From sequence record OP557970.1: a DNA stretch of 64,000 nt. One strand, given 5' to 3'. The notes below the pieces were generated by a model. It worked only from the letters and a program-made list of their open reading frames with translations. It ran no database searches and was not told the DNA's origin. Positions 12,039-53,465 of this stretch are shown piece after piece. Both the position numbers and the translations under genes were made by a program. Within the stretch, counting starts at the first letter, position 1; each line of letters opens with the position of its first letter. The DNA is from Escherichia phage ph0021.

Positions 12039-12364
12039 TTAAACCATCCTTTAATACGCTGCCACAGAGTTTTCTGTTGAGCTTTGTTAACACCAATTGA
12101 GCGAATAACTGGTTGAGATTCCTGGAATTCTTTATAATCAGCAAGGTAAATTTCGTAAGCCGATTGAACAAAGGTACTAATCGCTGCCATGAAGTTCTTG
12201 CGAATTCCCATAGAGGCTTCAGAACCACCACGGATGATTAAATATTTACCAGTCTTAATCTTTACGATAGTTCCAAGATAAGCTCCATGGTACCAGATGT
12301 CCCACCCCTCTTGAGTGGGTTCTGCACAACGACGAAGTTCATTAACAATTTCTAACTTGTTCAT
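12035..12364 (-). CDS. hypothetical protein (arn.4 position)
   Basis: 109-aa ORF upstream of motA in T4 map order. Confidence 0.55.
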
Positions 12365-12374
12365 TATTTATTCC

Positions 12375-13010
12375 TCACAGTTCAGATGCTACGGTGATTA
12401 CCGCTTCAATGTTTTCTGCCGAGCGTTTAATGTCAAGATACACATTACCGTTTTTAGCGATTTTACATGACATTCCGATATCAATAAATTTCTGAATATG
12501 ATGTTCCATCATTTTGTATCCAAAAATTCGCATATTTCCATTATTGTTAATTTCAAAATTACGAATTCCGTGAGTGCGTTTTTCTAAAATAGCGAGATAG
12601 TTACTACGATAAGTTTCAACCTTTTTAAGAACAAATCCATTTTCATCTAAAAGTTTTAGCATAAGGTCTTTATCTTCTTCCATATCGGAAGTAATCTCAC
12701 GAGCTTTACGAGTTGCTCGTTTTTTCAGTAGTTCAGGAGCATTTTCCTGTGCATATAAAGTTGCTGCATTTGAAATAATATCCTGAGCTTCTCCTGTAAT
12801 GATTAATCCATCACCAGATTTCTCTACCAGACCTTTTTTAATCAATACCCCAATATTACTATTAACTACTGCATTACCTAAATCTGGATGCACCTCACGA
12901 ACTTCTGCGGCTGTAATGAAATCTTTCTTAGCAATGGTAATTAAAATCGCAGCAGTTTTTTCATTCAGAACATCGTTAGAAGCTTTGATGATGTAAGTTA
13001 CTTTAGACAT
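12375..13010 (-). CDS. motA: middle-transcription activator MotA
   Basis: 211 aa; MSKVTYIIKASNDVLNEKTAAILITIAKKDFITAAEVREVHPDLGNAV matches T4 MotA. Confidence 0.95.
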   Translation of the reverse strand: MSKVTYIIKASNDVLNEKTAAILITIAKKDFITAAEVREVHPDLGNAVVNSNIGVLIKKGLVEKSGDGLIITGEAQDIISNAATLYAQENAPELLKKRATRKAREITSDMEEDKDLMLKLLDENGFVLKKVETYRSNYLAILEKRTHGIRNFEINNNGNMRIFGYKMMEHHIQKFIDIGMSCKIAKNGNVYLDIKRSAENIEAVITVASEL

Positions 13011-13046
13011 TTTAATCTCCGTTTCAGTTCATTTATTTGATAGGTC

Positions 13047-13076
13047 TATAGTATCATGTTTAAAGCAGAAGTAAAC
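13047..13076 (-). promoter_or_regulatory. T4-type early promoter upstream of motA
   Basis: Minus-strand GTTTAC, 17 bp spacer, TACTAT. Confidence 0.5.
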
Positions 13077-13115
13077 ACTTTTTTGCACTCTTTTTCAAGA
13101 GCTCTAATAAAGTAC

Positions 13116-13343
13116 TTACTTAATGTTCAGATTACGAACTTCGATTTCGTCTTCATGGGCAAAATCAAACTGTTTGAATTCTGTGTCACCTTTAAATTTA
13201 AAAATCATTGTGAAGAAAGTCAGAACACCAGGTTTTTCTTCACGAACTCCACAGATATCATATTCAATACCATCTACAACCAGTTTGTTAGCAGTCAGAG
13301 CATTTTTAGCTTTAACGATTTCGTTTTCGATTTTAAATTTCAT
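13116..13343 (-). CDS. hypothetical protein
   Basis: 75-aa ORF preceded by an early promoter. Confidence 0.5.
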   Translation of the reverse strand: MKFKIENEIVKAKNALTANKLVVDGIEYDICGVREEKPGVLTFFTMIFKFKGDTEFKQFDFAHEDEIEVRNLNIK

Positions 13344-13393
13344 TTTTTGTATCTCCGGGTTGTTTGTTTCAGTTCATTTATTTGATAGTTGTA

Positions 13394-13422
13394 TAGTACC
13401 ACAGTATGCTTTGGTTGTAAAC
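13394..13422 (-). promoter_or_regulatory. T4-type early promoter
   Basis: Minus-strand GTTTAC, 18 bp spacer, TGG-TACTAT plus the conserved leader ACAACTATCAA. Confidence 0.5.
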
Positions 13423-13444
13423 CGTTTTGTGAAAAAATTTTTGA

Positions 13445-13473
13445 AATAAAAAAGGGAGAGCCTCGGCTCTCCC
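13445..13473 (-). terminator. rho-independent terminator
   Basis: GGGAGAGCC/GGCTCTCCC stem followed by TTTTTTATT on the minus strand. Confidence 0.7.
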
Positions 13474-13478
13474 TAAAA

Positions 13479-13628
13479 TTACTGCATGACTGTGATAACT
13501 GTCATGATAACACGTTGAATTCCGAACGCAAGAAGACCTCCTGCTACGGCAGGAACAACACCTAAACCCGCCAGTAAAATGCCACCAGATACTAATGCAG
13601 CGCTTGTAATACCTATGAATGGACTCAT
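13479..13628 (-). CDS. small membrane protein (49 aa) translationally coupled to gene 52
   Basis: ATG overlaps the gene 52 stop (ATGA); Gly/Ala-rich hydrophobic peptide MSPFIGITSAALVSGGILLAGLGVVPAVAGG. Confidence 0.45.
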   Translation of the reverse strand: MSPFIGITSAALVSGGILLAGLGVVPAVAGGLLAFGIQRVIMTVITVMQ

Positions 13629-14953
13629 TTGATTTCCTCTAAATCTTTGGTGTATTCTGTAACTACATCAGTAGTTTTCCAATATTCGTTTTCTTCTTTT
13701 TTAGCTTTAGCTTCTTCAGCAAGTTTCTTTGCTTCGTCGGAAGTCATATGAAAAATATTCATTCCGACTAGTTTATCAACATAAGAAGAATACATCTCAA
13801 TTTTAGAAAGTTCTTCAGTCAGTTCTTTGCGAGTTTTACCCTGTACAACGATTTCACCTGAAATTACTTTCTTAATGAAATGTGCCTTGGCAAAAGCTAA
13901 ACGAAAAGCTGACTCAGTTTCTTTAATTTTATTATCAATTCGTTTTTGGACATAAGTTTTACGAACTTCAACGAAGTCTTTGATTAAATCAACTACGTTA
14001 TCGTAAACTTGTAGTTTTCCTTTCTCATTAATAACCGTAATATTCTGAGAACGACGCTCAATCAACCCGAAGTCTTTCATAATTTTTGCATGGCGTTCTT
14101 CTTCATTATCGCTCAAAGAGTATTCTTTTCGGAATTTAACTTTGAATCCAAAACCATGCTCACCACAAGCATCATCCCATGTAATGAAGCCTTTATCTTC
14201 AAGTGGGTCTAAGATTTTACTCACATAAATTTCACGATCATACTTATACGGAATCTCAGTGATATGCATTTGAGTTCGTGAAGTAAACTTATATGTTCCA
14301 CGAATTTCATATTGCCCATCAATTTCAACGACTTCACCACGAAATTCTGGGAATTCTACCTTCGGTTTAGTTACTTTCTTTCCTTGAAGAGCTTGTAATA
14401 CAGCTTTCTTGACAGAAGAAACACTATGAGGAAGAATGTAAGTTGCATAACCAGTTGCAATACCGGAAACGCCATTAAGAAGAACAGTAGGAATAATAGG
14501 CAAATAGAAAGCAGGCGGAATGTGTTCTTTATCTTGATGTACCGGAGCATATTCAGTATCTTTATATACGTTATAGAAATTTTTACTTACACGAGCAAAA
14601 ATATAACGACTTGCTGCTGCCTTTTGGACAGTACGAGAACCAAAGTTTCCTTGACCGTCTAACAGAGGAAAGTTATTATTCCAAGTGTTAGCCATCAAAG
14701 CACCTGCGTCTTGCGCAGAGTTTTCACCATGATGATATCCAAGGTCCGCTACACCGCCTGCGATAGAAGCGAGTTTGTGAAACTTATCTTTATTTCCTCG
14801 TGCCAAATCAAGAGCTCGAGCAATAACAAATCGTTGAACTGGCTTAAATCCGTCAATCATATTTGGAATGGCACGATTTTCAACCGTGTACATAGCATAA
14901 GCCAATGCTTCATTATCAATGATACTTTTTAAATCGCGATTATTCAGTTGCAT
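13625..14953 (-). CDS. 52: DNA topoisomerase II medium subunit gp52
   Basis: 442 aa, same length as T4 gp52; GyrA-like breakage-reunion region. Confidence 0.95.
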   Translation of the reverse strand: MQLNNRDLKSIIDNEALAYAMYTVENRAIPNMIDGFKPVQRFVIARALDLARGNKDKFHKLASIAGGVADLGYHHGENSAQDAGALMANTWNNNFPLLDGQGNFGSRTVQKAAASRYIFARVSKNFYNVYKDTEYAPVHQDKEHIPPAFYLPIIPTVLLNGVSGIATGYATYILPHSVSSVKKAVLQALQGKKVTKPKVEFPEFRGEVVEIDGQYEIRGTYKFTSRTQMHITEIPYKYDREIYVSKILDPLEDKGFITWDDACGEHGFGFKVKFRKEYSLSDNEEERHAKIMKDFGLIERRSQNITVINEKGKLQVYDNVVDLIKDFVEVRKTYVQKRIDNKIKETESAFRLAFAKAHFIKKVISGEIVVQGKTRKELTEELSKIEMYSSYVDKLVGMNIFHMTSDEAKKLAEEAKAKKEENEYWKTTDVVTEYTKDLEEIK

Positions 14954-14957
14954 AAAT

Positions 14958-15098
14958 TTACCATACTAGTGAATGTAGTGCCATAATAACATCAGAAATG
15001 AAAAGCACGACTTGAATTAATCCGAACATTACTCCATAATATAGTGCTACCAATAAAGTAGCAAGGGCTAATGAATAGCCCAAGATTTTCTTAATCAT
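14958..15098 (-). CDS. small hydrophobic peptide (52.1 position)
   Basis: 46 aa; ATG overlaps the upstream stop; below the ORF-track cutoff. Confidence 0.4.
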   Translation of the reverse strand: MIKKILGYSLALATLLVALYYGVMFGLIQVVLFISDVIMALHSLVW

Positions 15099-15249
15099 TA
15101 GTAGATAACAACACAAATGTTAAATATGCACACATACCCTGGGCTAAAGCTTGTGAAAACACACTGCTAGCATCGATACAGATAGTTAAAACACATGCTA
15201 CTATCCAACAAATAAATGAAATAACTCCTAATAATTTTGCGATATTCAT
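15091..15249 (-). CDS. ac: small membrane protein, position and size of T4 ac (acriflavine sensitivity)
   Basis: 52 aa, hydrophobic; RBS GTGAGGAAAA; T4 ac is about 51 aa at the same map position. Confidence 0.5.
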   Translation of the reverse strand: MNIAKLLGVISFICWIVACVLTICIDASSVFSQALAQGMCAYLTFVLLSTND

Positions 15250-15256
15250 ATTTTCC

Positions 15257-15337
15257 TCACTGGCGTCCGAAGACGCCTTTAGTTTTAAGATTATTACGAT
15301 AGAACTGCATCACATGTTCGTTATGGAAATTACTCAT
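15257..15337 (-). CDS. stp: Stp peptide (activator of the host PrrC anticodon nuclease)
   Basis: 26 aa [26 protein letters not shown] matches remembered T4 Stp; start overlaps the ndd stop. Confidence 0.7.
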
Positions 15338-15795
15338 TAATATGCCTGCAAAACGAATTTAAAATTATCAGCCAACATACGGTTCATTTCTTCAAGTGTT
15401 TGATACTCAGAATGATGATTACGAGTAAACGCTAAAGCTAACTGTCCTTTTCCAAATCCCGTCGTCAGAGGTTTCATCTTAGAAGCAGGCAGATAAAATA
15501 CTGCGTATGGAACATTGTTATTTGCAATAGTACGTGCAAGCTGAGACCGACGTTGACGAATATGACTTAGAACTGCACTGAATCCTTGCTTAGAACGCTG
15601 ATTACCTACATAAAATCGTGCAGACACGCATGGATTACTAAATGGACGACCATCTAATTTACTCACTAAAAAGTAAAATCCAGGTTTAGATAAAAAGTCT
15701 TTATGCGGAGTTCCCAAAAACCATTCACCGTTCTTGATTGTACCAATAACGGTAGCGCCAGCATTATTCAGATCAGTAGCAGTCATATATTTCAT
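15337..15795 (-). CDS. ndd: nucleoid disruption protein Ndd
   Basis: [33 protein letters not shown] matches T4 Ndd; start set at the internal Met with RBS GAGGAAA, trimming the track ORF to about 152 aa. Confidence 0.85.
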
Positions 15796-15855
15796 ATTAA
15801 TTTCCTCTAAATTATTTTCTACTCCAAGGCCGCATGAATACACGCGGCCATTAAA

Positions 15856-16071
15856 TTAATCGTCGCAGTCGACGCTCAATTCCCAAAACTCTTCTACGGT
15901 ATAAGTTTCAGTATCATTTTCAATACAGAAACGTTCATTACTATTATTTGCTAAAGTAGCGTTAACTGTCATTTTCTCGCTGGTGCTCTTAAGAGGTGAA
16001 ATACGAATTAACTGATCACCACTATCCAAGCAAAAAATTTCACCAACTTTTACATCTTTAAAGATTTTCAT
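15856..16071 (-). CDS. hypothetical protein (ndd.1 region)
   Basis: 71-aa ORF with RBS GAGGTG. Confidence 0.5.
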   Translation of the reverse strand: MKIFKDVKVGEIFCLDSGDQLIRISPLKSTSEKMTVNATLANNSNERFCIENDTETYTVEEFWELSVDCDD

Positions 16072-16079
16072 AATTCACC

Positions 16080-16190
16080 TCAAGGAGTATAAAATCCAAA
16101 TGCAGTTGTTGACCATCCCATCCAATATGGAAAATTTGCGCCAATGTAAAACATAAGAATATAAAACCAACCACTCAGCAAATTCATCAT
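16080..16190 (-). CDS. small hydrophobic peptide (36 aa)
   Basis: MMNLLSGWFYILMFYIGANFPYWMGW...; ATGA overlap with the upstream stop. Confidence 0.35.
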   Translation of the reverse strand: MMNLLSGWFYILMFYIGANFPYWMGWSTTAFGFYTP

Positions 16191-16384
16191 TTTACACCAT
16201 TCCAAATTGTTTCAACCACGGATTTTAAACCATTTTGATGAATATCCATTCCGACTACCGTCATCAAATAAATTCCAACTACAACTGAACCTAAGGCAAA
16301 AATCAGCATGAAAATGAATAAAGCCGGAAAAATATTATCGAAAAACCATTCAATAAATGTAAAAGCACTGCGTTTACGCTTCAT
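16187..16384 (-). CDS. small membrane protein
   Basis: Track ORF trimmed to the Met preceded by GAGGAAAAT; one TM helix. Confidence 0.45.
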   Translation of the reverse strand: MKRKRSAFTFIEWFFDNIFPALFIFMLIFALGSVVVGIYLMTVVGMDIHQNGLKSVVETIWNGVK

Positions 16385-16391
16385 ATTTTCC

Positions 16392-16505
16392 TCACATAAA
16401 TCCAAAGTAAACGTTTAATACATCAATCATTAAAACGATTGGGAATATACTCAAAACTATTAGTATTATAACTACATTCCATATAGCTTTAACAATCTTT
16501 TTCAT
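16392..16505 (-). CDS. small membrane peptide (37 aa)
   Basis: MKKIVKAIWNVVIILIVLSIFPIVLM...; RBS GGAGG; directly downstream of an early promoter. Confidence 0.4.
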   Translation of the reverse strand: MKKIVKAIWNVVIILIVLSIFPIVLMIDVLNVYFGFM

Positions 16506-16533
16506 TTTCTGTTCCTCCGTAGTTGATAGGGTA

Positions 16534-16563
16534 ATAGTACCACGGAAGAACAGTCTTGTAAAC
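16534..16563 (-). promoter_or_regulatory. T4-type early promoter
   Basis: GTTTAC, 18 bp spacer, TGG-TACTAT. Confidence 0.5.
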
Positions 16564-16748
16564 AACTTTTTTAAAAATATTCGTAATAAATGTGAATACC
16601 AATCACTACTGCCGAAACTTGTGCAACCCACCATGCACACGCAATAAGTACAGAATTCAAAATTTTCATAATAACCTCATCACAAAAGTAAATGTTAAAC
16701 AAATTACTGGAATACTAATTAACCAAACAAAACACCAACATAATGAAC

Positions 16749-17012
16749 TCATAGTTCAATCTCAACGATTTCCAAGTGTTTTTGTTTTATTGCCTTTTTA
16801 ACACAATCATGGACTAAATATGACCATGAATCATTATATTCTCCATTAACTAATCGTTGGAGATCTTCACGTGATGATAAGTAAGGTTGATCTGATTCCC
16901 ATTTTGATAAAAATACTGCAGTAAAAATATCTCCTTCATCTGTAGTTGAAGTCGTAAATGCAATAAATTCACCGGTAATTTTATGTTTAGCGTAATAAAA
17001 TTTAAATTTCAT
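16749..17012 (-). CDS. hypothetical protein
   Basis: Track ORF trimmed to the internal Met (MKFKFYYAKHK) with RBS GGAGG, because an early promoter lies inside the 5' extension. Confidence 0.5.
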   Translation of the reverse strand: MKFKFYYAKHKITGEFIAFTTSTTDEGDIFTAVFLSKWESDQPYLSSREDLQRLVNGEYNDSWSYLVHDCVKKAIKQKHLEIVEIEL

Positions 17013-17039
17013 TTTTACTCCTCCGTAGCTGATAGTTGT

Positions 17040-17069
17040 ATAGTACCACGGTCCTTGTGGTATGTAAAC
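17040..17069 (-). promoter_or_regulatory. T4-type early promoter
   Basis: GTTTAC, 18 bp spacer, TGG-TACTAT plus the conserved leader. Confidence 0.5.
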
Positions 17070-17086
17070 TGTTTTGTGAAAATTTT

Positions 17087-17644
17087 TTAAATGGAAAGAT
17101 ACCATCCATTGTAGTTGCTTTTTCTTACAACCTTACGAAGGTCTTCTCTGTCACCGATGAACTTCGGAGTGTACTGGATGACACCTGGATGAATTTCTTT
17201 AGTGTTGAATATAATTATACAGTCAGCGACTTGATGATTTAGAATGGGCCCTAGATTTATTCCAGAACCGTATGGATACTCTCCGCTGCATCCTGTTGTT
17301 ACAGAAATCCAACGTGAGCCAGTTTGATGTGTCTTAACTTCTACACGAAGCCCACAGTATTTTGGATGTGCTAAAACATCCCACGCGTATGTATATGGAT
17401 CATCGACATCTTCTTGACCTTTATTAACATACCCGCTTAGCCAATCTGCTACAAAAAACTCTGCGTATACAGCAATACGACATCTTTCAATAACTTCTGC
17501 TTTATCCTGGTTCGGGTTTTGTTTTAAAGAGTATCTTGCAGTATCAGCAATTTTGACCTTCATTTCACTAGTCAAGTCACTGTTCGATAGGGTAAATGTC
17601 GGAATCTGAAATAGTCTCTGTAAACCCGGATTCGTTTTCTGCAT
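17087..17644 (-). CDS. denB: endonuclease IV DenB
   Basis: 185 aa, same length and map position as T4 DenB. Confidence 0.85.
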   Translation of the reverse strand: MQKTNPGLQRLFQIPTFTLSNSDLTSEMKVKIADTARYSLKQNPNQDKAEVIERCRIAVYAEFFVADWLSGYVNKGQEDVDDPYTYAWDVLAHPKYCGLRVEVKTHQTGSRWISVTTGCSGEYPYGSGINLGPILNHQVADCIIIFNTKEIHPGVIQYTPKFIGDREDLRKVVRKSNYNGWYLSI

Positions 17645-17906
17645 TTAGACTTTCCTTTTTACCACTGAGATAAGCGTTATATACTTTAAGAGTGCCGTAA
17701 TAAATTCGGTCATTTTCATCTAAAGACTCGCGGTCAAGTTCATCAAGCTCCTTTTTATCCATGACTATAACATCATTACAGTAAAGAAACCCAAGTTTTT
17801 CGTGACCAAACTCAAATTTATTACAGTACACAATATTAGCGTGATGATTTCCGTGCAGTTTAATCTCTTTTATGTCGGAATCACCGATATTCATACAATA
17901 AATCAT
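17577..17906 (-). CDS. hypothetical protein (denB.1 position)
   Basis: 109-aa ORF; its 3' end overlaps the denB start. Confidence 0.45.
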   Translation of the reverse strand: MIYCMNIGDSDIKEIKLHGNHHANIVYCNKFEFGHEKLGFLYCNDVIVMDKKELDELDRESLDENDRIYYGTLKVYNAYLSGKKESLNAENESGFTETISDSDIYPIEQ

Positions 17907-17916
17907 AATTTTTCCT

Positions 17917-17941
17917 TAAAACAAAAGGGCCGAAGCCCTTT
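17917..17941 (-). terminator. terminator-like hairpin
   Basis: AAGGGCCGAAGCCCTT stem-loop followed by a T-run on the minus strand. Confidence 0.5.
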
Positions 17942-17944
17942 ATT

Positions 17945-18139
17945 TTACTTGAATTGTGCAATTCTTTTCTCTAGACATTCAGCATAAGATTTCATTGAGA
18001 TGAACTGTGAAAGTAGCAGTTCTTGCTCAACTACACTAACTGTTAGAAACTTTGCGCTTTCTAAAAATTTACTCAGTGCATTAATTTTGAGCATTAATTG
18101 ATCGTATTCTTCTTTTACTCGTGCTTGATAACCTAACAT
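17945..18139 (-). CDS. hypothetical protein
   Basis: 64-aa ORF with a predicted coiled-coil character. Confidence 0.5.
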   Translation of the reverse strand: MLGYQARVKEEYDQLMLKINALSKFLESAKFLTVSVVEQELLLSQFISMKSYAECLEKRIAQFK

Positions 18140-18167
18140 AATTTTCCTTAGTTAAGGGCCGAAGCCC

Positions 18168-19106
18168 TTATTTAAATTGTTCAGTAACGTCTTCAACTAC
18201 TTCGTATTGGCAGGTACGCATTTTAGCGTCGTTATAATCAATCGGAATTGATACCACATCGCGAGGATGCACTTTAACTTTTACGACTCGGCTGGTTGAA
18301 CTGCCAAAGTGACGAATATAAGATTTAGAACACACATGCAGACCACGAGAACAAGTTTGTGTATCATCGTCATTCACACGAGTACGTGGCATTTTAACTA
18401 CTTTACCCGGACTGTTATCAAAGGTATTTGAGTGACAGTCAAAGTAATTGCTGCGAACTACTTTCCAAGCATAGAAGTAGCCATCTTCTGTAATTTCAAT
18501 ATCGTTTGCTACCAAGAAATCAAAGAGTCGAGATACCGCTTTTTGGCTTGGGTTTTCCAGCAGATTTTCCAAGAACGGAAAATAAAATTCAAAGTTTTCG
18601 CCTTTTTCCATCGAGTCAAGAATACGATCAACCAAACCAGACCGCAATTCAATATTTTGATAGAACAAGCTTCCACCTTCAATTCGAACATCGCCGGAAA
18701 TATATTTTTCAACAGCGCGACGAACATTAATTTTTTGTGCTGCTTCTTCCAGCTTATCCGCTACAAGCAGATTAAGAATTTCCTGGAAGTTTGAATGAGT
18801 ATTAGGAGTTGCGTTATAAGTTACACCGTCAACAGTAATTGAAATGAATTTTTTAGATGCATTCCAAATAATGTCAGATTTAGCAACTGGAGCAATAACT
18901 GCATCGCTATTAACTTTAACTGTAATATCACCACTAATAGTAACTTTAGAGCGTTCTGCTTCTTCAGCATTTTTCAAAACACGACGGATTGTGTCAACCG
19001 ATACACCTTGCCAATCAGCCAATTCCTGCTGGGTGTAATTACCACTTGAATACAGTTTAACAATTTCAGCTTGTTCGTTTTTGGTCAGGCATTTAATATT
19101 GTACAT
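18168..19106 (-). CDS. rIIB: rIIB protein
   Basis: 312 aa, same length as T4 rIIB; immediately follows rIIA. Confidence 0.93.
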   Translation of the reverse strand: MYNIKCLTKNEQAEIVKLYSSGNYTQQELADWQGVSVDTIRRVLKNAEEAERSKVTISGDITVKVNSDAVIAPVAKSDIIWNASKKFISITVDGVTYNATPNTHSNFQEILNLLVADKLEEAAQKINVRRAVEKYISGDVRIEGGSLFYQNIELRSGLVDRILDSMEKGENFEFYFPFLENLLENPSQKAVSRLFDFLVANDIEITEDGYFYAWKVVRSNYFDCHSNTFDNSPGKVVKMPRTRVNDDDTQTCSRGLHVCSKSYIRHFGSSTSRVVKVKVHPRDVVSIPIDYNDAKMRTCQYEVVEDVTEQFK

Positions 19107-19117
19107 AATTTTCCTTA

Positions 19118-21295
19118 TTAGGCCGCAAGGGCCTTCATAGTTTTAGCGATTTGAGAAACTTCATCATCACTTAAAGAGTTGCGATAACCGATGAAGTCGG
19201 AAACAATACGGAATTTCTTGGTAAACTCAGCAACCATTTTATCACTGTTTTTTGAAGCATTATTTGACAATACATCAAAAAGATTAGTTACTGTCCAGAT
19301 GTCATGACCAATGGTATCTTTTCCACCATTAAAATATACACCGCGCAATGAACTAACTATATTAGCGAGTCGTGTATATTCTTCAGAAACTTCATCTGTA
19401 CTGAAGTACTTCATCATAAAATCTAACTCAGGATACTTGATAATTTTATCAATATATCGTTGAGCTGAACTTGAATAACCTACGTACTTATCATAATCTA
19501 CATCATCAAAAGCATCTACATATAAATCACGCAAAGCTTCAAAAATACACTGGCACTGACCGAGTTCTTTTACCTTTTTCTGTAAAAGCGGACGAATAAC
19601 ATAAAATTCATTAATGCCAATAAGATTAGCCATACGAATCAAAATATTCATAGATGGATGACAAAGAGATGTAGTACCATCCATAGAGAAAATATCAGAA
19701 CGATGCATATACGCTACATAACCAGTAATTTCATCTGCTTCTGATGTGAGCGTAAATAATTCCTCTTTTTCCCAGCGCCCGTCTTTAATTTCAAACTTAA
19801 ATGCTGTAGCAGCTTTAGGACGAGGAGCTTTACTTTTAACTACCTTTGGAATATAGCTTTTAACTAAAGCTTCGATTTCTGACAAATAATGAATGTTAAC
19901 TTCATCACTTTCAAACATCGCCATAATATCAGGGAGTAAATCAATCTGCGATTCTACTTCTGGGTTAATAAACAGAAGGCGTTCGTTATGATGAATATTC
20001 AAAGTGTTATTAAATTCACTATCATCTAACGCTCGTGCTAATCCACGAACAATATTAACACGATTTTTAATATTATCAATAACGATATTAATTTTTGTTG
20101 TATTAATACCAAACAGACGATAACTTGATGCAACGGCTGAAGTTTCATGACTTTGCTTAATGCGTTTCAGTCGAGGGTCAAGATTTACTTCATACACAAC
20201 TCCTGCATTGCATAACTTACTATCAGGTTCAAACATGCTTTGCATCTTTTTATATGACAGATTTTTAGTCGTGAATTTAACTGAATTACTAATCATATAA
20301 TCTCGAGCAGAATACCCCATCTTCATCAATTCACGATATGTGTGACGAGGAGATGTGGATTCTTTAAATCGTTTTACATCTTCATTAAATGCTTTCTCAC
20401 TGAGTTCTTTAACTCGTTCAATAATATTTTTACGAGTACGATCATCCAGTGAAAGAGCCTCGCGAGATGGAGCAATATCAAGTGAACCCATTGGAAACTT
20501 AATGTAATTCACTTCATTGCGAATGCTTAGCCAGTTACGGTCTCTAATAACACCATCGATAGGATAAACAATACCGCCATAGATAGCATATAATCCACCA
20601 CGATCAGGCCAGTATCTTTCTGGATTTACACCGTAATAGTCATCAAAATCCGGAAAATAATCAATTTCGCGGTCAAGACCATTAATGATAGCCAAATCTT
20701 TGAATGGTCGCATGATATAAGAAACTTCATAAGCAAAGTTTCTAAAGTCTTTTTCTTCAACTGGAACTACGATTTCAATACCAGTTTTATCATCTGGACC
20801 CATTTCTTTTACGAATGTAGGTTTAATCTGTGGACCATCACCATCCATGTAAGCTACATAACCACGAATTTCGCCTTTATGATATGAAGTAATACTAAAT
20901 GTATCAGTATAACTAAACGGAGATTTAGAACCTAAACCAAATCCACCAATGAAATCGTTAGATTCAGCCTTAGATGAACTAAAGTATGAATTATACAACC
21001 CAGGAGAATTATCATCACCCTGAATATCAAAATCGCTCATACCTGGACCAAAATCACGACAAACAAATCGCGGATCTAATCGTCCTGGAACTTGAATGAT
21101 AAATTTTTCAGGATTTCCATTGAGAGCATGGGCATCAATCATATTGGTAATCAATTCACGGACTACTGCGCGAATCTTGTTTGTATACAAATCAGATGAC
21201 AGAATTTTAAATACTTTAGGAGATGCTGTGATGCTAAATGCTTTTGATTTAGAACCATTGCCAAGAATTGTTTCTTTTTCAGTGGTGATAATCAT
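19118..21295 (-). CDS. rIIA: rIIA protein
   Basis: 725 aa, same length as T4 rIIA; N-terminal ATPase-like region. Confidence 0.93.
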
Positions 21296-52312: not shown

Positions 52313-53328
52313 TGTGTTGCCTCTACATATAACTGATTTGCATATTGAATAAGTGCTTCGCGATCAGAATCAGTGATGTCTGGAATTGCATTAATGTATT
52401 CTTCCATCAATGTCTGAAGAGATTGAACTTCAACTTCTTCACTATCATCTGACTCGACAGAGTTATCAATCTTTGACACAACTCGTAATGAATGCACAAC
52501 TTTTTCTAGTTCAGATTCGAACTTCGTCAGATTTTTGTCTACCTCAGTTACTATAACACGTACTGATAGATTTGTAAAATCTTTATAGTCAATTTTTCCC
52601 TTAAATGGGTATTGAATTCGACGATGCCAGGTAGTATTGTTTGGAATAAATTCCATTCGTTCTGTTTCTGTATCAAACATCCAGAACCCACGAGGGTCAT
52701 TCTCGTCACCTGCAGTTAGTGTCCATGGTGTCCCAATATATCTGACGTTAGCAGCCTCAGAGATAGTATGGAAGTGACCAGACCACACTTCTTTATAAGT
52801 CTTAAGGAAATCAGGTTCAAGACCGTGAGATTTCATTCCTTTATAAAAATAAAATCCGTTCAGTTCCCAGTGACCAATACAAAAAGAAGCAGATGAAGTT
52901 TTGATGTGCTCAAGAATTTCACCAGTATTTTCTTCACACATCCAAGGAATTAAATCAATTAAACATCCGTCAAAATCTACCGTAGTAGGCTTATCATATA
53001 CTTTAACATTAGGATATTTAGCCAAAAGCTCAGTAGAGGCATTTGGATGCATTACATTTTTGTAGTGGAGATCGTGATTTCCTACAATAGTATGTAATGT
53101 GATTCCAGCAACATCAAGCATTTGAACTATTTCACGGGCAAACTCCATAGTTTTATGTGTGATTGCTTTTCGCACATCAAAAATATCGCCGTATTGAATC
53201 CATACAGTAATTCCATTTTTCTTAGAATATTCTATTGCTTGTTTAATTCCATCAATTTGAATACCGCGAATCCACTCATCATCAGCTTTAACGCCTAAAT
53301 GCCAATCACCTAAATTTAAAATTTTCAT
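52309..53328 (-). CDS. 47: recombination nuclease subunit gp47 (Mre11/SbcD-like)
   Basis: 339 aa, same as T4 gp47; phosphoesterase motifs GDWHLG and GNHD. Confidence 0.95.
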   Translation of the reverse strand: MKILNLGDWHLGVKADDEWIRGIQIDGIKQAIEYSKKNGITVWIQYGDIFDVRKAITHKTMEFAREIVQMLDVAGITLHTIVGNHDLHYKNVMHPNASTELLAKYPNVKVYDKPTTVDFDGCLIDLIPWMCEENTGEILEHIKTSSASFCIGHWELNGFYFYKGMKSHGLEPDFLKTYKEVWSGHFHTISEAANVRYIGTPWTLTAGDENDPRGFWMFDTETERMEFIPNNTTWHRRIQYPFKGKIDYKDFTNLSVRVIVTEVDKNLTKFESELEKVVHSLRVVSKIDNSVESDDSEEVEVQSLQTLMEEYINAIPDITDSDREALIQYANQLYVEATQ

Positions 53329-53465
53329 ATATCAAGAACCGTCATTGAAATGCAAAATAAAATTATTGAAATAAATCCATCTGGAGTGCTAAAGAACCCA
53401 ATCCAACATGCTCTAGTGAATAGATAAAATGCAAGAAAAAGTATCACATATCCAAGAAATATCAT
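53325..53465 (-). CDS. small hydrophobic peptide (47.1 position)
   Basis: 46 aa MIFLGYVILFLAFYLF...; stop overlaps the gene 47 ATG; below the ORF-track cutoff. Confidence 0.4.
   Translation of the reverse strand: MIFLGYVILFLAFYLFTRACWIGFFSTPDGFISIILFCISMTVLDI

Follow-up and report, generated by a model that had tools for sequence, protein, structure and literature searches.

Escherichia phage ph0021 carries, on the minus strand around the nucleoid disruption gene ndd, a run of very short open reading frames, which raises the question of whether these frames encode proteins and, if so, which ones. The window examined here is a stretch of 64,000 nucleotides of this phage (sequence record OP557970.1). 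A sequence-only reading of it had placed micro-ORFs between gene 52 and ndd, upstream of ndd and at two further sites, had likened them to T4 genes, and had suggested that they are membrane-targeted host-takeover or anti-defence factors.

The micro-ORFs correspond one for one to T4 genes

Sequence comparison showed that positions 13400-17700 of the window match the Tequatrovirus Pseudomonas phage PsgM02F at 100% identity and many Tequatroviruses of E. coli at 98-99%. An IMG/VR scan with Ndd as query gave just 5 loci, and GenBank phage records were therefore used instead; 493 of these records covered at least 80% of positions 14954-16760. The seven micro-ORFs of the sequence-only reading (52.1, ac, stp, ndd.2, ndd.4, motA.1 and 47.1) were recovered on the minus strand with the coordinates and lengths that it had given (Table 1). 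Its gene naming was right as well: in the T4 annotation (AF158101) the same seven genes stand in matching order, and the micro-proteins of the window are 96-100% identical to their T4 counterparts. When compared with T4 52.1, ac, stp and the ndd.x genes, as had been proposed, each micro-ORF proved to be the ortholog of an annotated T4 gene. Three other micro-genes of the cluster, ndd.2a, ndd.5 and ndd.6, had been missed. The T4 products gp52.1, MotA.1, Ndd.2, Ndd.2a, Ndd.4, Ndd.5, Ndd.6 and gp47.1, whose order, strand and coupling junctions are shared with the window, are termed "hypothetical predicted membrane proteins" in T4.

Larger genes lie among the micro-genes, and one of them, ndd, divides the cluster into two parts. 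The product of another, Ndd.1, was seen early in the T4 proteome (PMC9697503 Table S2). An 87-aa ORF at the upstream end of the locus occurs in 13 of the fetched related loci; T4 is without it between ndd.6 and denB and has a 106-nt gap there instead.

Taken together with the evidence below, we hold with high confidence that the locus is the Tequatrovirus copy of the T4 early non-essential block motA.1/52/52.1/ac/stp/ndd/ndd.1/ndd.2/ndd.2a/ndd.4/ndd.5/ndd.6, and that its micro-ORFs are genuinely protein-coding and lie in polycistronic early units. The micro-gene cluster is already known and offers nothing new, the T4 genes having been annotated for decades.

Table 1. Features of the micro-gene region in the window. 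pN/pS values refer to the annotated frame and are pairwise substitution sums, which are phylogenetically non-independent; KD19 is a crude hydropathy scale, by which membrane insertion is predicted only.
Feature	Coordinates	Strand	Description	Evidence	pN/pS	KD19 maximum
terminator	13453..13474	-	intrinsic terminator after motA.1	9-bp GC-rich stem then T run; fold -17.6 kcal/mol		
motA.1	13479..13628	-	49 aa, Gly-rich, hydrophobic	48/49 identical to T4 MotA.1; phrog_3487, E=7e-31	0.09	2.26
gene 52	13625..14953	-	topoisomerase II medium subunit, 442 aa; flanking anchor gene	translation matches T4 gp52		
52.1	14958..15098	-	46-aa hydrophobic membrane micro-protein (predicted)	45/46 identical to T4 gp52.1; DUF7396	0.13-0.17	2.35
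ac	15091..15249	-	acridine-sensitivity membrane protein, 52 aa	96% identical to T4 Ac over 51 residues; phrog_2501, E=3.7e-25	0.11-0.36	2.74
stp	15257..15337	-	26-aa hydrophilic peptide	26/26 identical to T4 Stp; PF08133; phrog_6763	0.09-0.15	-0.85
stp hairpin	15262..15277	-	GGCGUC-UUCG-GACGCC tetraloop hairpin	scan; fold -11.5 kcal/mol		
ndd	15337..15795	-	nucleoid disruption protein, 152 aa	95% identical to T4 Ndd	about 0.17-0.19	
ndd.1	15856..16071	-	71 aa, acidic, soluble	96% identical to T4 Ndd.1; phrog_2183 match		
ndd.2	16080..16190	-	36 aa, aromatic-rich, moderately hydrophobic	35/36 identical to T4 Ndd.2; phrog_4135	0.09	1.17
ndd.2a	16187..16384	-	65 aa	DUF7248; phrog_2401	0.11-0.24	
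ndd.4	16392..16505	-	37-aa single-pass membrane micro-protein (predicted)	36/37 identical to residues 6-42 of T4 Ndd.4	0.46 within genus (few substitutions; one antisense frame lower)	3.06
early promoter	16534..16562	-	T4-type, for ndd.4 and downstream genes	promoter scan; conserved in 12 related loci		
ndd.5	16571..16669	-	32 aa, hydrophobic	31/32 identical to T4 Ndd.5; phrog_5011	0.04	
ndd.6	16666..16752	-	28 aa, hydrophobic	27/28 identical to T4 Ndd.6; phrog_8851	0.29 within genus (23 differences; tied with another frame)	
87-aa ORF	16749..17012	-	soluble, RB69ORF270c-like	phrog_2390, E=1.8e-43		
early promoter	17040..17068	-	T4-type, for the 87-aa ORF, ndd.6 and ndd.5	promoter scan		
47.1	53325..53465	-	46 aa, hydrophobic, between a-gt and gene 47	46/46 identical to T4 gp47.1; phrog_6693		1.97

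Early promoters, a terminator and overlapping starts organize the cluster

Early promoters were defined by a GTTTAC-type -35 element, a 17-nt spacer, a TG-extended TAnnAT -10 element and an A/T-rich upstream element. The minus strand has three near-identical T4-type early promoters, located at 17068-17040, 16562-16534 and 13421-13393. The first gene downstream of the promoter at 17068-17040 is the 87-aa ORF. The promoter at 16562-16534 consists of TTTACA, 17 nt and a TG-extended TACTAT with A/T-rich sequence upstream; the first gene behind it, ndd.4, has a GGAGG Shine-Dalgarno sequence 8 nt upstream of its start. The number of promoter-like sites in the region, 29 versus a shuffled expectation of 24.7, was not above that expectation, and the promoter argument therefore rests on the three near-identical conserved sites. 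At the other end, the terminator after motA.1 closes the early unit running ndd, stp, ac, 52.1, 52 and motA.1. The micro-genes thus fall into two or three polycistronic units, starting at 17068-17040 and 16562-16534 and ending at the terminator. An RNA family that might explain the region was also sought and rejected: an Rfam scan of positions 12300-19200 gave only CrcZ, on the terminator hairpin, at 21.6 bits versus a gathering score of 95.

At the level of translation, ATGA overlaps join five gene pairs (87-aa ORF/ndd.6, ndd.6/ndd.5, ndd.2a/ndd.2, 52/motA.1 and 47.1/47). Overlapping stop and start codons had been claimed for the three genes between ndd and gene 52, and this claim stood in part: ndd and stp overlap by 1 nt (TAATG) and ac and 52.1 by 8 nt, whereas stp is separated from ac by a 7-nt spacer and 52.1 from gene 52 by a 4-nt spacer. 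At the 7-nt spacer, the Shine-Dalgarno sequence of ac, GAGGA, overlaps the stp stop codon, which forms part of it (TGAGGAAAATATG). At 52.1, stp, ndd.2 and ndd.6, Shine-Dalgarno sequences are weak or absent. Since 52.1 starts inside the 3' end of ac without a Shine-Dalgarno sequence of its own, its translation is probably coupled to that of ac. Across the cluster, starts that have a GAGG-type Shine-Dalgarno sequence or overlap the upstream stop (ATGA, TAATG or the 8-nt overlap) suggest translational coupling.

Conservation supports coding capacity

Among the ORFs listed, 69 with a length of 20 aa or more overlap positions 13000-18000. With so many short ORFs in 5 kb, an ORF of such size is not significant by itself, and the case rests on conservation and context. 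In pairwise substitution sums, which are phylogenetically non-independent, pN/pS in the annotated frame was 0.04-0.5 for the micro-genes, comparable to the value for ndd (about 0.17-0.19), whereas most of the other frames gave about 1 or higher; the annotated frame had the lowest value of the six frames in 9 of 11 genes. The within-genus values of ndd.4 and ndd.6 are equivocal (Table 1). Substitutions in the micro-genes fell mainly at the third codon position.

The conservation in related phages by which the sequence-only reading had proposed to judge these frames was indeed found, as the micro-ORFs recur in hundreds of genomes with mostly synonymous changes; Stp-like peptides occur in about 800 phage records, 52.1 in 910 and ndd.4 in 596. 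Conservation at the protein level reaches Mosigvirus, Gaprivervirus and related genera, with 44-93% identity across genera: ndd.4 retains 61% in other genera and ndd.6 44-54% in Mosigvirus and Gaprivervirus loci, and 52.1 falls to about 50% in Klebsiella T4-like phages. Every micro-protein matched a PHROG family, and three exceeded the gathering cutoff of a Pfam profile, namely Stp (PF08133, "anticodon nuclease activator"; 75.3 bits, cutoff 25, profile positions 1-26 of 26), 52.1 (DUF7396; 81.9 bits, cutoff 27, positions 1-46 of 46) and Ndd.2a (DUF7248; 71 bits, cutoff 27).

The T4 transcripts of all cluster genes are classed as "early", and the protein class of the hydrophobic micro-proteins is "NA", i.e., undetected (PMC9697503 Table S2). 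Non-detection is expected because the peptides are tiny and hydrophobic; yet the proteome provides no positive evidence either.

Stp is identical to the T4 anti-restriction peptide

Stp and Ac of T4 have an experimental literature. T4 Stp is a 26-residue inhibitor of the type IC enzyme EcoprrI and so unmasks the PrrC anticodon nuclease (PMC3014915). The sequence-only reading had named Stp as the releaser of PrrC, in agreement with this literature, and the 26-aa sequence that it quoted was exact, all 26 residues being those of T4 Stp. Activity needs the 18 N-terminal residues, and mutations cluster at residues 4-14 (PMC3014915). These 18 residues are the same in the window as in T4 and are invariant in the fetched Tequatrovirus loci; Gaprivervirus VR7 differs at 3. 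The gene also occupies an equivalent position in both phages, overlapping the ndd stop codon upstream of ac in a shared early unit, and no difference from T4 was seen at the sequence level.

From its 100% identity to the tested T4 peptide, we infer that the Stp of the window would inhibit type IC restriction (EcoprrI, EcoR124I) and activate latent PrrC. T4 Stp acts by binding the host type IC restriction complex, by which DNA restriction is blocked, and in prr+ hosts this block unmasks the tRNA-Lys anticodon nuclease PrrC. The phage counters PrrC through polynucleotide kinase and RNA ligase 1, a pair that makes the carriage of Stp tolerable on prr+ hosts. Neither EcoprrI nor PrrC is known from Pseudomonas, the reported isolation host. 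The source genome carries both genes of the tRNA repair pair, as annotated in OR584013 (RNA ligase, 152195-153319; polynucleotide kinase, 155036-155944), outside the 64-kb window.

The tetraloop hairpin within stp sits in the last codons of the gene (residues G-V-F-G-R-Q) and ends 2 nt ahead of the stp stop codon and ac Shine-Dalgarno sequence. T4-type stp alleles have this hairpin, and VR7 has a version with a UUUG loop. A constraint of this hairpin on the Stp C-terminus was considered; T2-type alleles lack the hairpin, and there were no compensatory changes to count.

Stp-like peptides of 25-26 aa with the N-terminal motif MS(N/S)xHNEH(V/I)MQxYR are also found in T1-like and other siphoviruses (TLS, Stevie; Kagunavirus, Tlsvirus, Nouzillyvirus, Segzyvirus), all above the PF08133 cutoff at 35-66 bits, and their genes in Drexlerviridae are located near the polynucleotide kinase gene. 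They differ from the Stp of the window, which is of the T4 type, in belonging to other phage families, in their neighbour genes and in a divergent C-terminal third. We discarded them as a novelty, the position near pnk included, because the link has already been published for TLS and Stevie (PMC4319613).

Ac and the hydrophobic micro-proteins

The micro-proteins had been described as hydrophobic, which is true of all except Stp, a hydrophilic peptide (GRAVY -1.03), and of Ndd.2 only to a moderate degree. On the crude KD19 scale, maxima of 1.97-3.06 in MotA.1, 52.1, Ac, Ndd.2a, Ndd.4, Ndd.5, Ndd.6 and 47.1 predict a bilayer-spanning segment of about 19 or more residues; Stp lacks such a segment and the signal in Ndd.2 is weak.

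Ac has two hydrophobic segments, equal to the pair in T4 Ac, and its gene is likewise flanked by stp and 52.1. It differs from the 51-aa T4 protein (…LLSND) by one added residue near the C-terminus (…LLSTND). Other Tequatroviruses and Mosigvirus also have a second type of ac allele, which is highly divergent (34-45% identity). In T4, loss of ac is reported to confer acriflavine resistance and its expression to sensitise the host (10.1101/2025.06.30.662393; PMC13250531). A membrane location has been proposed for Ac, together with a block of the efflux pump AcrAB-TolC; this model comes from one preprint, which builds it on expression experiments and structure prediction and whose abstract describes no direct binding evidence (bioRxiv 10.1101/2025.06.30.662393). 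The Ac of the window would insert in the inner membrane, and infected cells would accumulate acridines, reportedly via a block of AcrAB-TolC. The earlier guess of membrane-targeted takeover or anti-defence factors fits two of the proteins: Ac, through its proposed membrane location, and Stp, which is anti-restriction as guessed but soluble and not membrane-targeted.

For 52.1, MotA.1, Ndd.2a, Ndd.4, Ndd.5, Ndd.6 and 47.1, we infer one- or two-helix inner-membrane micro-proteins that would be made in the first minutes of infection and be dispensable in the laboratory. Ndd.2a, for example, has a basic N-terminus (MKRKR) followed by a single long hydrophobic stretch and ends in a polar tail. By analogy with Ac, these seven most likely modulate host envelope proteins. 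Each could also bind one particular machine of the host inner membrane, for instance a transporter, an efflux pump or a defence or abortive-infection sensor anchored there, and disable or rewire it in the manner proposed for Ac, the seven jointly forming a toolkit of membrane-targeted takeover or anti-defence factors; we regard this analogy-based proposal as tentative and rather doubtful. In that case the gene 52.1, directly upstream of gene 52, would be the most likely of them to have a conserved host target, since its cross-genus conservation (72-93%) exceeds that of Ndd (60-63%).

Alternative readings of the short frames

Two other explanations were weighed against protein-coding genes. The micro-ORFs might have arisen by chance as open frames in the AT-rich leader DNA between genes, with function residing in the promoters, terminators and RNA hairpins. 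The abundance of short ORFs in the surrounding 5 kb, the conserved promoters and stable hairpins of the region, one of them within stp, and the failure to detect the peptides in the T4 proteome (PMC9697503) would all be in keeping with this. However, third-position changes dominate and the annotated frame generally has the lowest pN/pS, the ORFs are intact in hundreds of genomes and conserved as proteins across genera, no Rfam family matches the region, and stp and ac were already defined by genetics (PMC3014915; reported for ac in 10.1101/2025.06.30.662393). We consider chance frames extremely improbable.

The shortest ORFs (ndd.6, ndd.5, ndd.2 and 52.1) could instead be translated "relay" ORFs that retain ribosomes on the polycistronic early mRNA. 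Expression of the larger neighbours (ndd, gene 52 and gene 47) would then be set by translational coupling or by protection from Rho and RNases, and the peptide sequence would be of minor importance. The five ATGA, one TAATG and one 8-nt overlap that tie micro-ORFs to their neighbours are consistent with such a role, as are the weak or missing Shine-Dalgarno sequences at 52.1, stp, ndd.2 and ndd.6. Most micro-genes are without a known phenotype, and in a CRISPRi-ART screen frd.2 is reported to be the sole T4 gene of unknown function with an effect on fitness (PMC11879866); the cluster genes are not named in the main texts of the T4 CRISPRi-ART and HIDEN-SEQ papers, and a literature search with the ndd.x gene names matched solely papers on neurodevelopmental disorders. 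Against the relay role, amino acids are under purifying selection in ndd.5, ndd.2 and 52.1 (pN/pS 0.04-0.17 in the same non-independent sums), 52.1 varies less between genera than Ndd does, and Stp and Ac, which are of like build, have peptide-dependent activities described as demonstrated (PMC3014915; for Ac, 10.1101/2025.06.30.662393). Relay ORFs are in our judgement quite unlikely, and we retain the reading of the micro-ORFs as protein-coding early genes.

Corrections to gene annotation

The comparison also bears on the T4 reference. AF158101 has "ndd.3" and a 40-aa "ndd.2a" where the window has a single 65-aa ndd.2a. This 65-aa ORF is intact in 12 relatives, among them two other T4 records, and carries an in-frame stop in the T2 record PV958097; the G after ATGAA is missing in AF158101 only, and it is this 1-nt gap that splits ndd.2a in the T4 reference. 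Judged from these aligned records, the "ndd.3" of T4 probably reflects a frameshift artefact in the reference. Similarly, the upstream ATG of the T4-annotated ndd.4 reads ACG in the other alignable relatives, and ndd.4 is 37 aa in the window because that ATG is missing. The T4 reference would be corrected by merging "ndd.3" and the truncated "ndd.2a" into one 65-aa gene and by annotating ndd.4 as 37 aa.

The sequence-only reading had called the micro-genes invisible to the ORF track, which is true and merely an effect of its length cutoff; stp and ndd.6 are also unannotated in the source GenBank record, and stp is without annotation in most related records among the matches listed. Gene callers routinely lose stp (26 aa) and ndd.6 (28 aa). 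As a discovery the cluster matters little, and its hydrophobic micro-proteins are reasonable, though not new, targets for small-protein studies. The practical value lies in annotation: because stp is dropped by gene callers, hundreds of T4-like phages that are candidates for therapy carry a known anti-restriction factor that their records do not report.

Correspondence with T4 early genes

The stretch at 13400-17700 was 100% identical to phage PsgM02F (OR584013.1) and 98-99% identical to many Tequatroviruses of E. coli, Shigella and Yersinia. Since PsgM02F was published as a Tequatrovirus, with Pseudomonas syringae pv. garcae as its isolation host (PMC10815195), we regard the window as part of a T4-like genome. 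The P. syringae host claim is unusual for a T4-like phage, given the 98-99% identity to E. coli phages; the efficiency of plating of PsgM02F on E. coli ATCC 25922 was only 0.11% (PMC10815195).

The window was aligned to the T4 annotation (AF158101), both translated, and the micro-genes corresponded one-to-one. The sequence-only reading had itself proposed T4 52.1, ac, stp and ndd.x as the genes to compare, and its gene identities proved right; the coordinates, minus strand, lengths and Stp sequence were also as it had given them. It had overlooked ndd.2a, ndd.5 and ndd.6 in the same cluster. Three genes are not present in T4 at their positions, and all sit in variable slots adjoining early promoters.

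Coordinates of the micro-genes, neighboring ORFs and Stp-like ORFs (window positions unless a related locus is named)
Feature	Position	Strand	Relation to T4 or other remarks
75-aa ORF	13116-13343		Between motA and motA.1; phrog_10955; not in T4 here
motA.1	13479-13628	minus	48/49 identical
52.1	14958-15098	minus	45/46 identical
ac	15091-15249	minus	52 aa vs 51 in T4, 96%
stp	15257-15337	minus	26/26 identical
ndd	15337-15795	minus	95%
ndd.1	15856-16071	minus	96%
ndd.2	16080-16190	minus	35/36 identical
ndd.2a	16187-16384	minus	T4 counterpart split (ndd.3 + truncated ndd.2a)
ndd.4	16392-16505	minus	36/37 identical
ndd.5	16571-16669	minus	31/32 identical
ndd.6	16666-16752	minus	27/28 identical
87-aa ORF	16749-17012	minus	Between ndd.6 and denB; phrog_2390, RB69ORF270c-like; not in T4 here
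109-aa ORF	17577-17906		DUF7418, phrog_2237; 3' end overlaps denB start by 68 nt; not in T4 here
47.1	53325-53465	minus	46/46 identical
Stp-like ORFs	L019 2501-2578; L020 1975-2052; L021 2501-2581; L022 2501-2581		MS[NS]xHNEH[VI]MQxYR…

Coding evidence

The presence of an ORF alone was uninformative here, because 69 ORFs of 20 aa or longer overlapped one 5-kb stretch. The frames might be chance ORFs within leader DNA, or the shortest might be mere translational relays for larger neighbors. Substitutions were examined between the window and as many as 16 related loci, drawn from T4, T2 and further Tequatroviruses, from Mosigvirus and Gaprivervirus, and from five IMG/VR contigs; they fell mainly at third codon positions. 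The ratio of nonsynonymous to synonymous change (pN/pS) in the annotated frames was 0.04-0.5, comparable to that of ndd (about 0.17-0.19), and when all six frames were compared as a control, the annotated one was lowest in 9 of 11 genes; these pairwise sums are phylogenetically non-independent and thus supportive rather than a formal test. Only ndd.4 and ndd.6, with few substitutions each, were equivocal in the within-genus control; their cross-genus protein identities were 61% and 44-54%, respectively. The relay and chance-ORF explanations are both disfavored because the amino-acid sequences are strongly constrained and the ORFs are intact in hundreds of genomes, and cross-genus conservation of 52.1 (72-93%) exceeding that of Ndd (60-63%) also speaks against them.

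At least 80% of 14954-16760 was present in 493 phage records, 52.1 in 910 records (with identity falling to about 50% in Klebsiella T4-like phages) and ndd.4 in 596. Every micro-protein matched a PHROG family, and Stp (PF08133), 52.1 (DUF7396) and ndd.2a (DUF7248) exceeded Pfam gathering cutoffs. A scan of Rfam gave no family accounting for the region. The conservation in related phages on which the sequence-only reading had staked its interpretation is thus present, in these records and families and across genera. Its observation is accurate and its interpretation correct. The finding is already known, since every product belongs to a family named in T4, Pfam or PHROGs, and the micro-gene feature is ordinary and fully foreseen by knowledge of T4.

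Promoters, gene junctions and RNA structure

Three near-identical T4-type early promoters (A/T-rich upstream, GTTTACA, 17 nt, TG-extended TACTAT) lie on the minus strand at 17068-17040, 16562-16534 and 13421-13393. Promoter-like matches in the region showed in total no excess over shuffled expectation, and it is therefore these three conserved, closely similar sites that carry the argument. A strong terminator is located at 13474-13453 on the minus strand. ATGA overlaps join the 87-aa ORF to ndd.6, ndd.6 to ndd.5, ndd.2a to ndd.2, 52 to motA.1 and 47.1 to 47; the ndd/stp overlap is TAATG, and 52.1 starts 8 nt inside ac. Overlapping stop and start codons, claimed for 52.1, ac and stp, are therefore a property of the cluster and apply to those three genes only in part, with spacers of 7 nt from stp to ac and 4 nt from 52.1 to 52. 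At the identical TGAGGAAAATATG junction of ac and ndd.2a, the stop codon of the preceding gene forms part of the Shine-Dalgarno sequence.

In T4, the early transcript class includes motA.1, 52.1, ac, stp and ndd.2-ndd.6; mass spectrometry detected Ndd and Ndd.1 but none of the proteins of these early-class genes (PMC9697503 Table S2). The 60-nt ndd.1-ndd spacer contains a stable stem-loop at 15825-15846 on the minus strand with 9 predicted pairs (GGCCGCGUG…CAUGCGGCC), and folding of the whole 15796-15860 gave -19.4 kcal/mol. This stem-loop is not a typical terminator because it lacks a T run, and it might serve in RNA processing or stability; at the equivalent position, one Mosigvirus record has a terminator annotated.

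Annotation corrections

In AF158101 (T4 locus L002, 5433-5629, matching window 16187-16384), a single G is missing directly behind the ndd.2a start codon (ATGAA-CGT), so that the start region reads ATGAACGT versus ATGAAGCGT elsewhere. The missing G yields a 26-aa, frame-shifted 'ndd.3' and a truncated 40-aa 'ndd.2a'. The G is present, and ndd.2a encodes a single 65-aa protein (DUF7248), in the window, in two other T4 records (KJ477684, 'wild', and OZ035787) and in the remaining relatives examined. T2 also has the G; nevertheless, its record PV958097 has an in-frame stop there. T4 'ndd.3' is thus unlikely to be a genuine gene. The T4-annotated ndd.4 start (MEEQK-MKK…) is ACG instead of ATG in the window and other alignable non-T4 relatives (16505-16520), and in T4 this upstream ATG overlaps the GGAGG Shine-Dalgarno sequence and would lie within a few nucleotides of the promoter -10 element. 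The alignment indicates that the conserved ndd.4 product is the 37-aa form starting at 16505.

The OR584013 record leaves stp and ndd.6 unannotated and calls a 118-aa ORF (16749-17105) that spans the 17040-17068 early promoter and reaches into denB; the protein conserved there has 87 aa and starts at 17012, with a GGAGG Shine-Dalgarno sequence. Among the matches listed, stp was unannotated in most related records. In several phage records, homologues of ndd, ndd.1 and ndd.4 (the last a 37-aa membrane peptide) have inherited the product name 'naphthalene 1,2-dioxygenase', an obvious annotation-pipeline artefact.

Stp

Stp is hydrophilic (GRAVY, overall hydropathy, -1.03) and hence not a membrane peptide. 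The window allele is identical to that of T4. The repair pair that counters PrrC, polynucleotide kinase with RNA ligase 1, is present in OR584013. T4 Stp (26 residues) is necessary and sufficient for activation of latent PrrC; it targets the type IC restriction complex and relieves EcoprrI and EcoR124I restriction, leaving type IA enzymes unaffected, and its activity resides in the N-terminal 18 residues, the last 8 being largely dispensable (PMC3014915). Across the Tequatrovirus loci fetched, the N-terminal 18 residues were invariant and the tail polymorphic. The last stp codons (G-V-F-G-R-Q) form a tetraloop hairpin at 15262-15277 on the minus strand (GGCGUC-UUCG-GACGCC, -11.5 kcal/mol) ending 2 nt before the stp stop codon/ac Shine-Dalgarno sequence; T2-type alleles (…KNFGILG…) lack it. 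The dispensable tail may be shaped by mRNA structure. In phage UGKSEcP2 the stp stop codon is missing, and the frame continues through 59 codons. The Mosigvirus loci (L015, L016) lack stp altogether.

Stp-like ORFs of 25-26 aa, all above the PF08133 cutoff and mostly unannotated, occurred in Kagunavirus, Nouzillyvirus, Tlsvirus and Segzyvirus siphoviruses, and in two Drexlerviridae the ORF lies 1.2-2.4 kb upstream of a polynucleotide kinase gene. They are not a novelty, this having already been published for TLS and Stevie (PMC4319613).

Ac and other hydrophobic peptides

Ac has two hydrophobic segments. According to a 2025 preprint (10.1101/2025.06.30.662393; cited in PMC13250531), ac expression makes E. 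coli acriflavine-sensitive and ac deletion makes T4 resistant, and its authors propose that Ac inserts into the membrane, where it blocks AcrAB-TolC. Two very divergent ac allele types (34-45% mutual identity; related loci L009, L010 and L015) occur among Tequatroviruses, and T2 record PV958097 has in-frame stops in both ac and ndd.2a; loci with allele oddities in stp, ac or ndd.2a also include L017 (2599-2751) and L011 (722-793).

A hydrophobic stretch long enough to span the bilayer was present in 52.1, motA.1, ndd.2a, ndd.4, ndd.5, ndd.6 and 47.1 (KD19 maximum, on a crude hydropathy scale, 1.97-3.06), and ndd.2 is rich in aromatic residues but no more than moderately hydrophobic. Among T4 genes of unknown function, a CRISPRi-ART screen reported only frd.2 as relevant to fitness (PMC11879866), implying that the genes for these peptides are dispensable in laboratory conditions. 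By analogy with the proposal for Ac, the seven peptides with such a stretch might modulate host envelope proteins.
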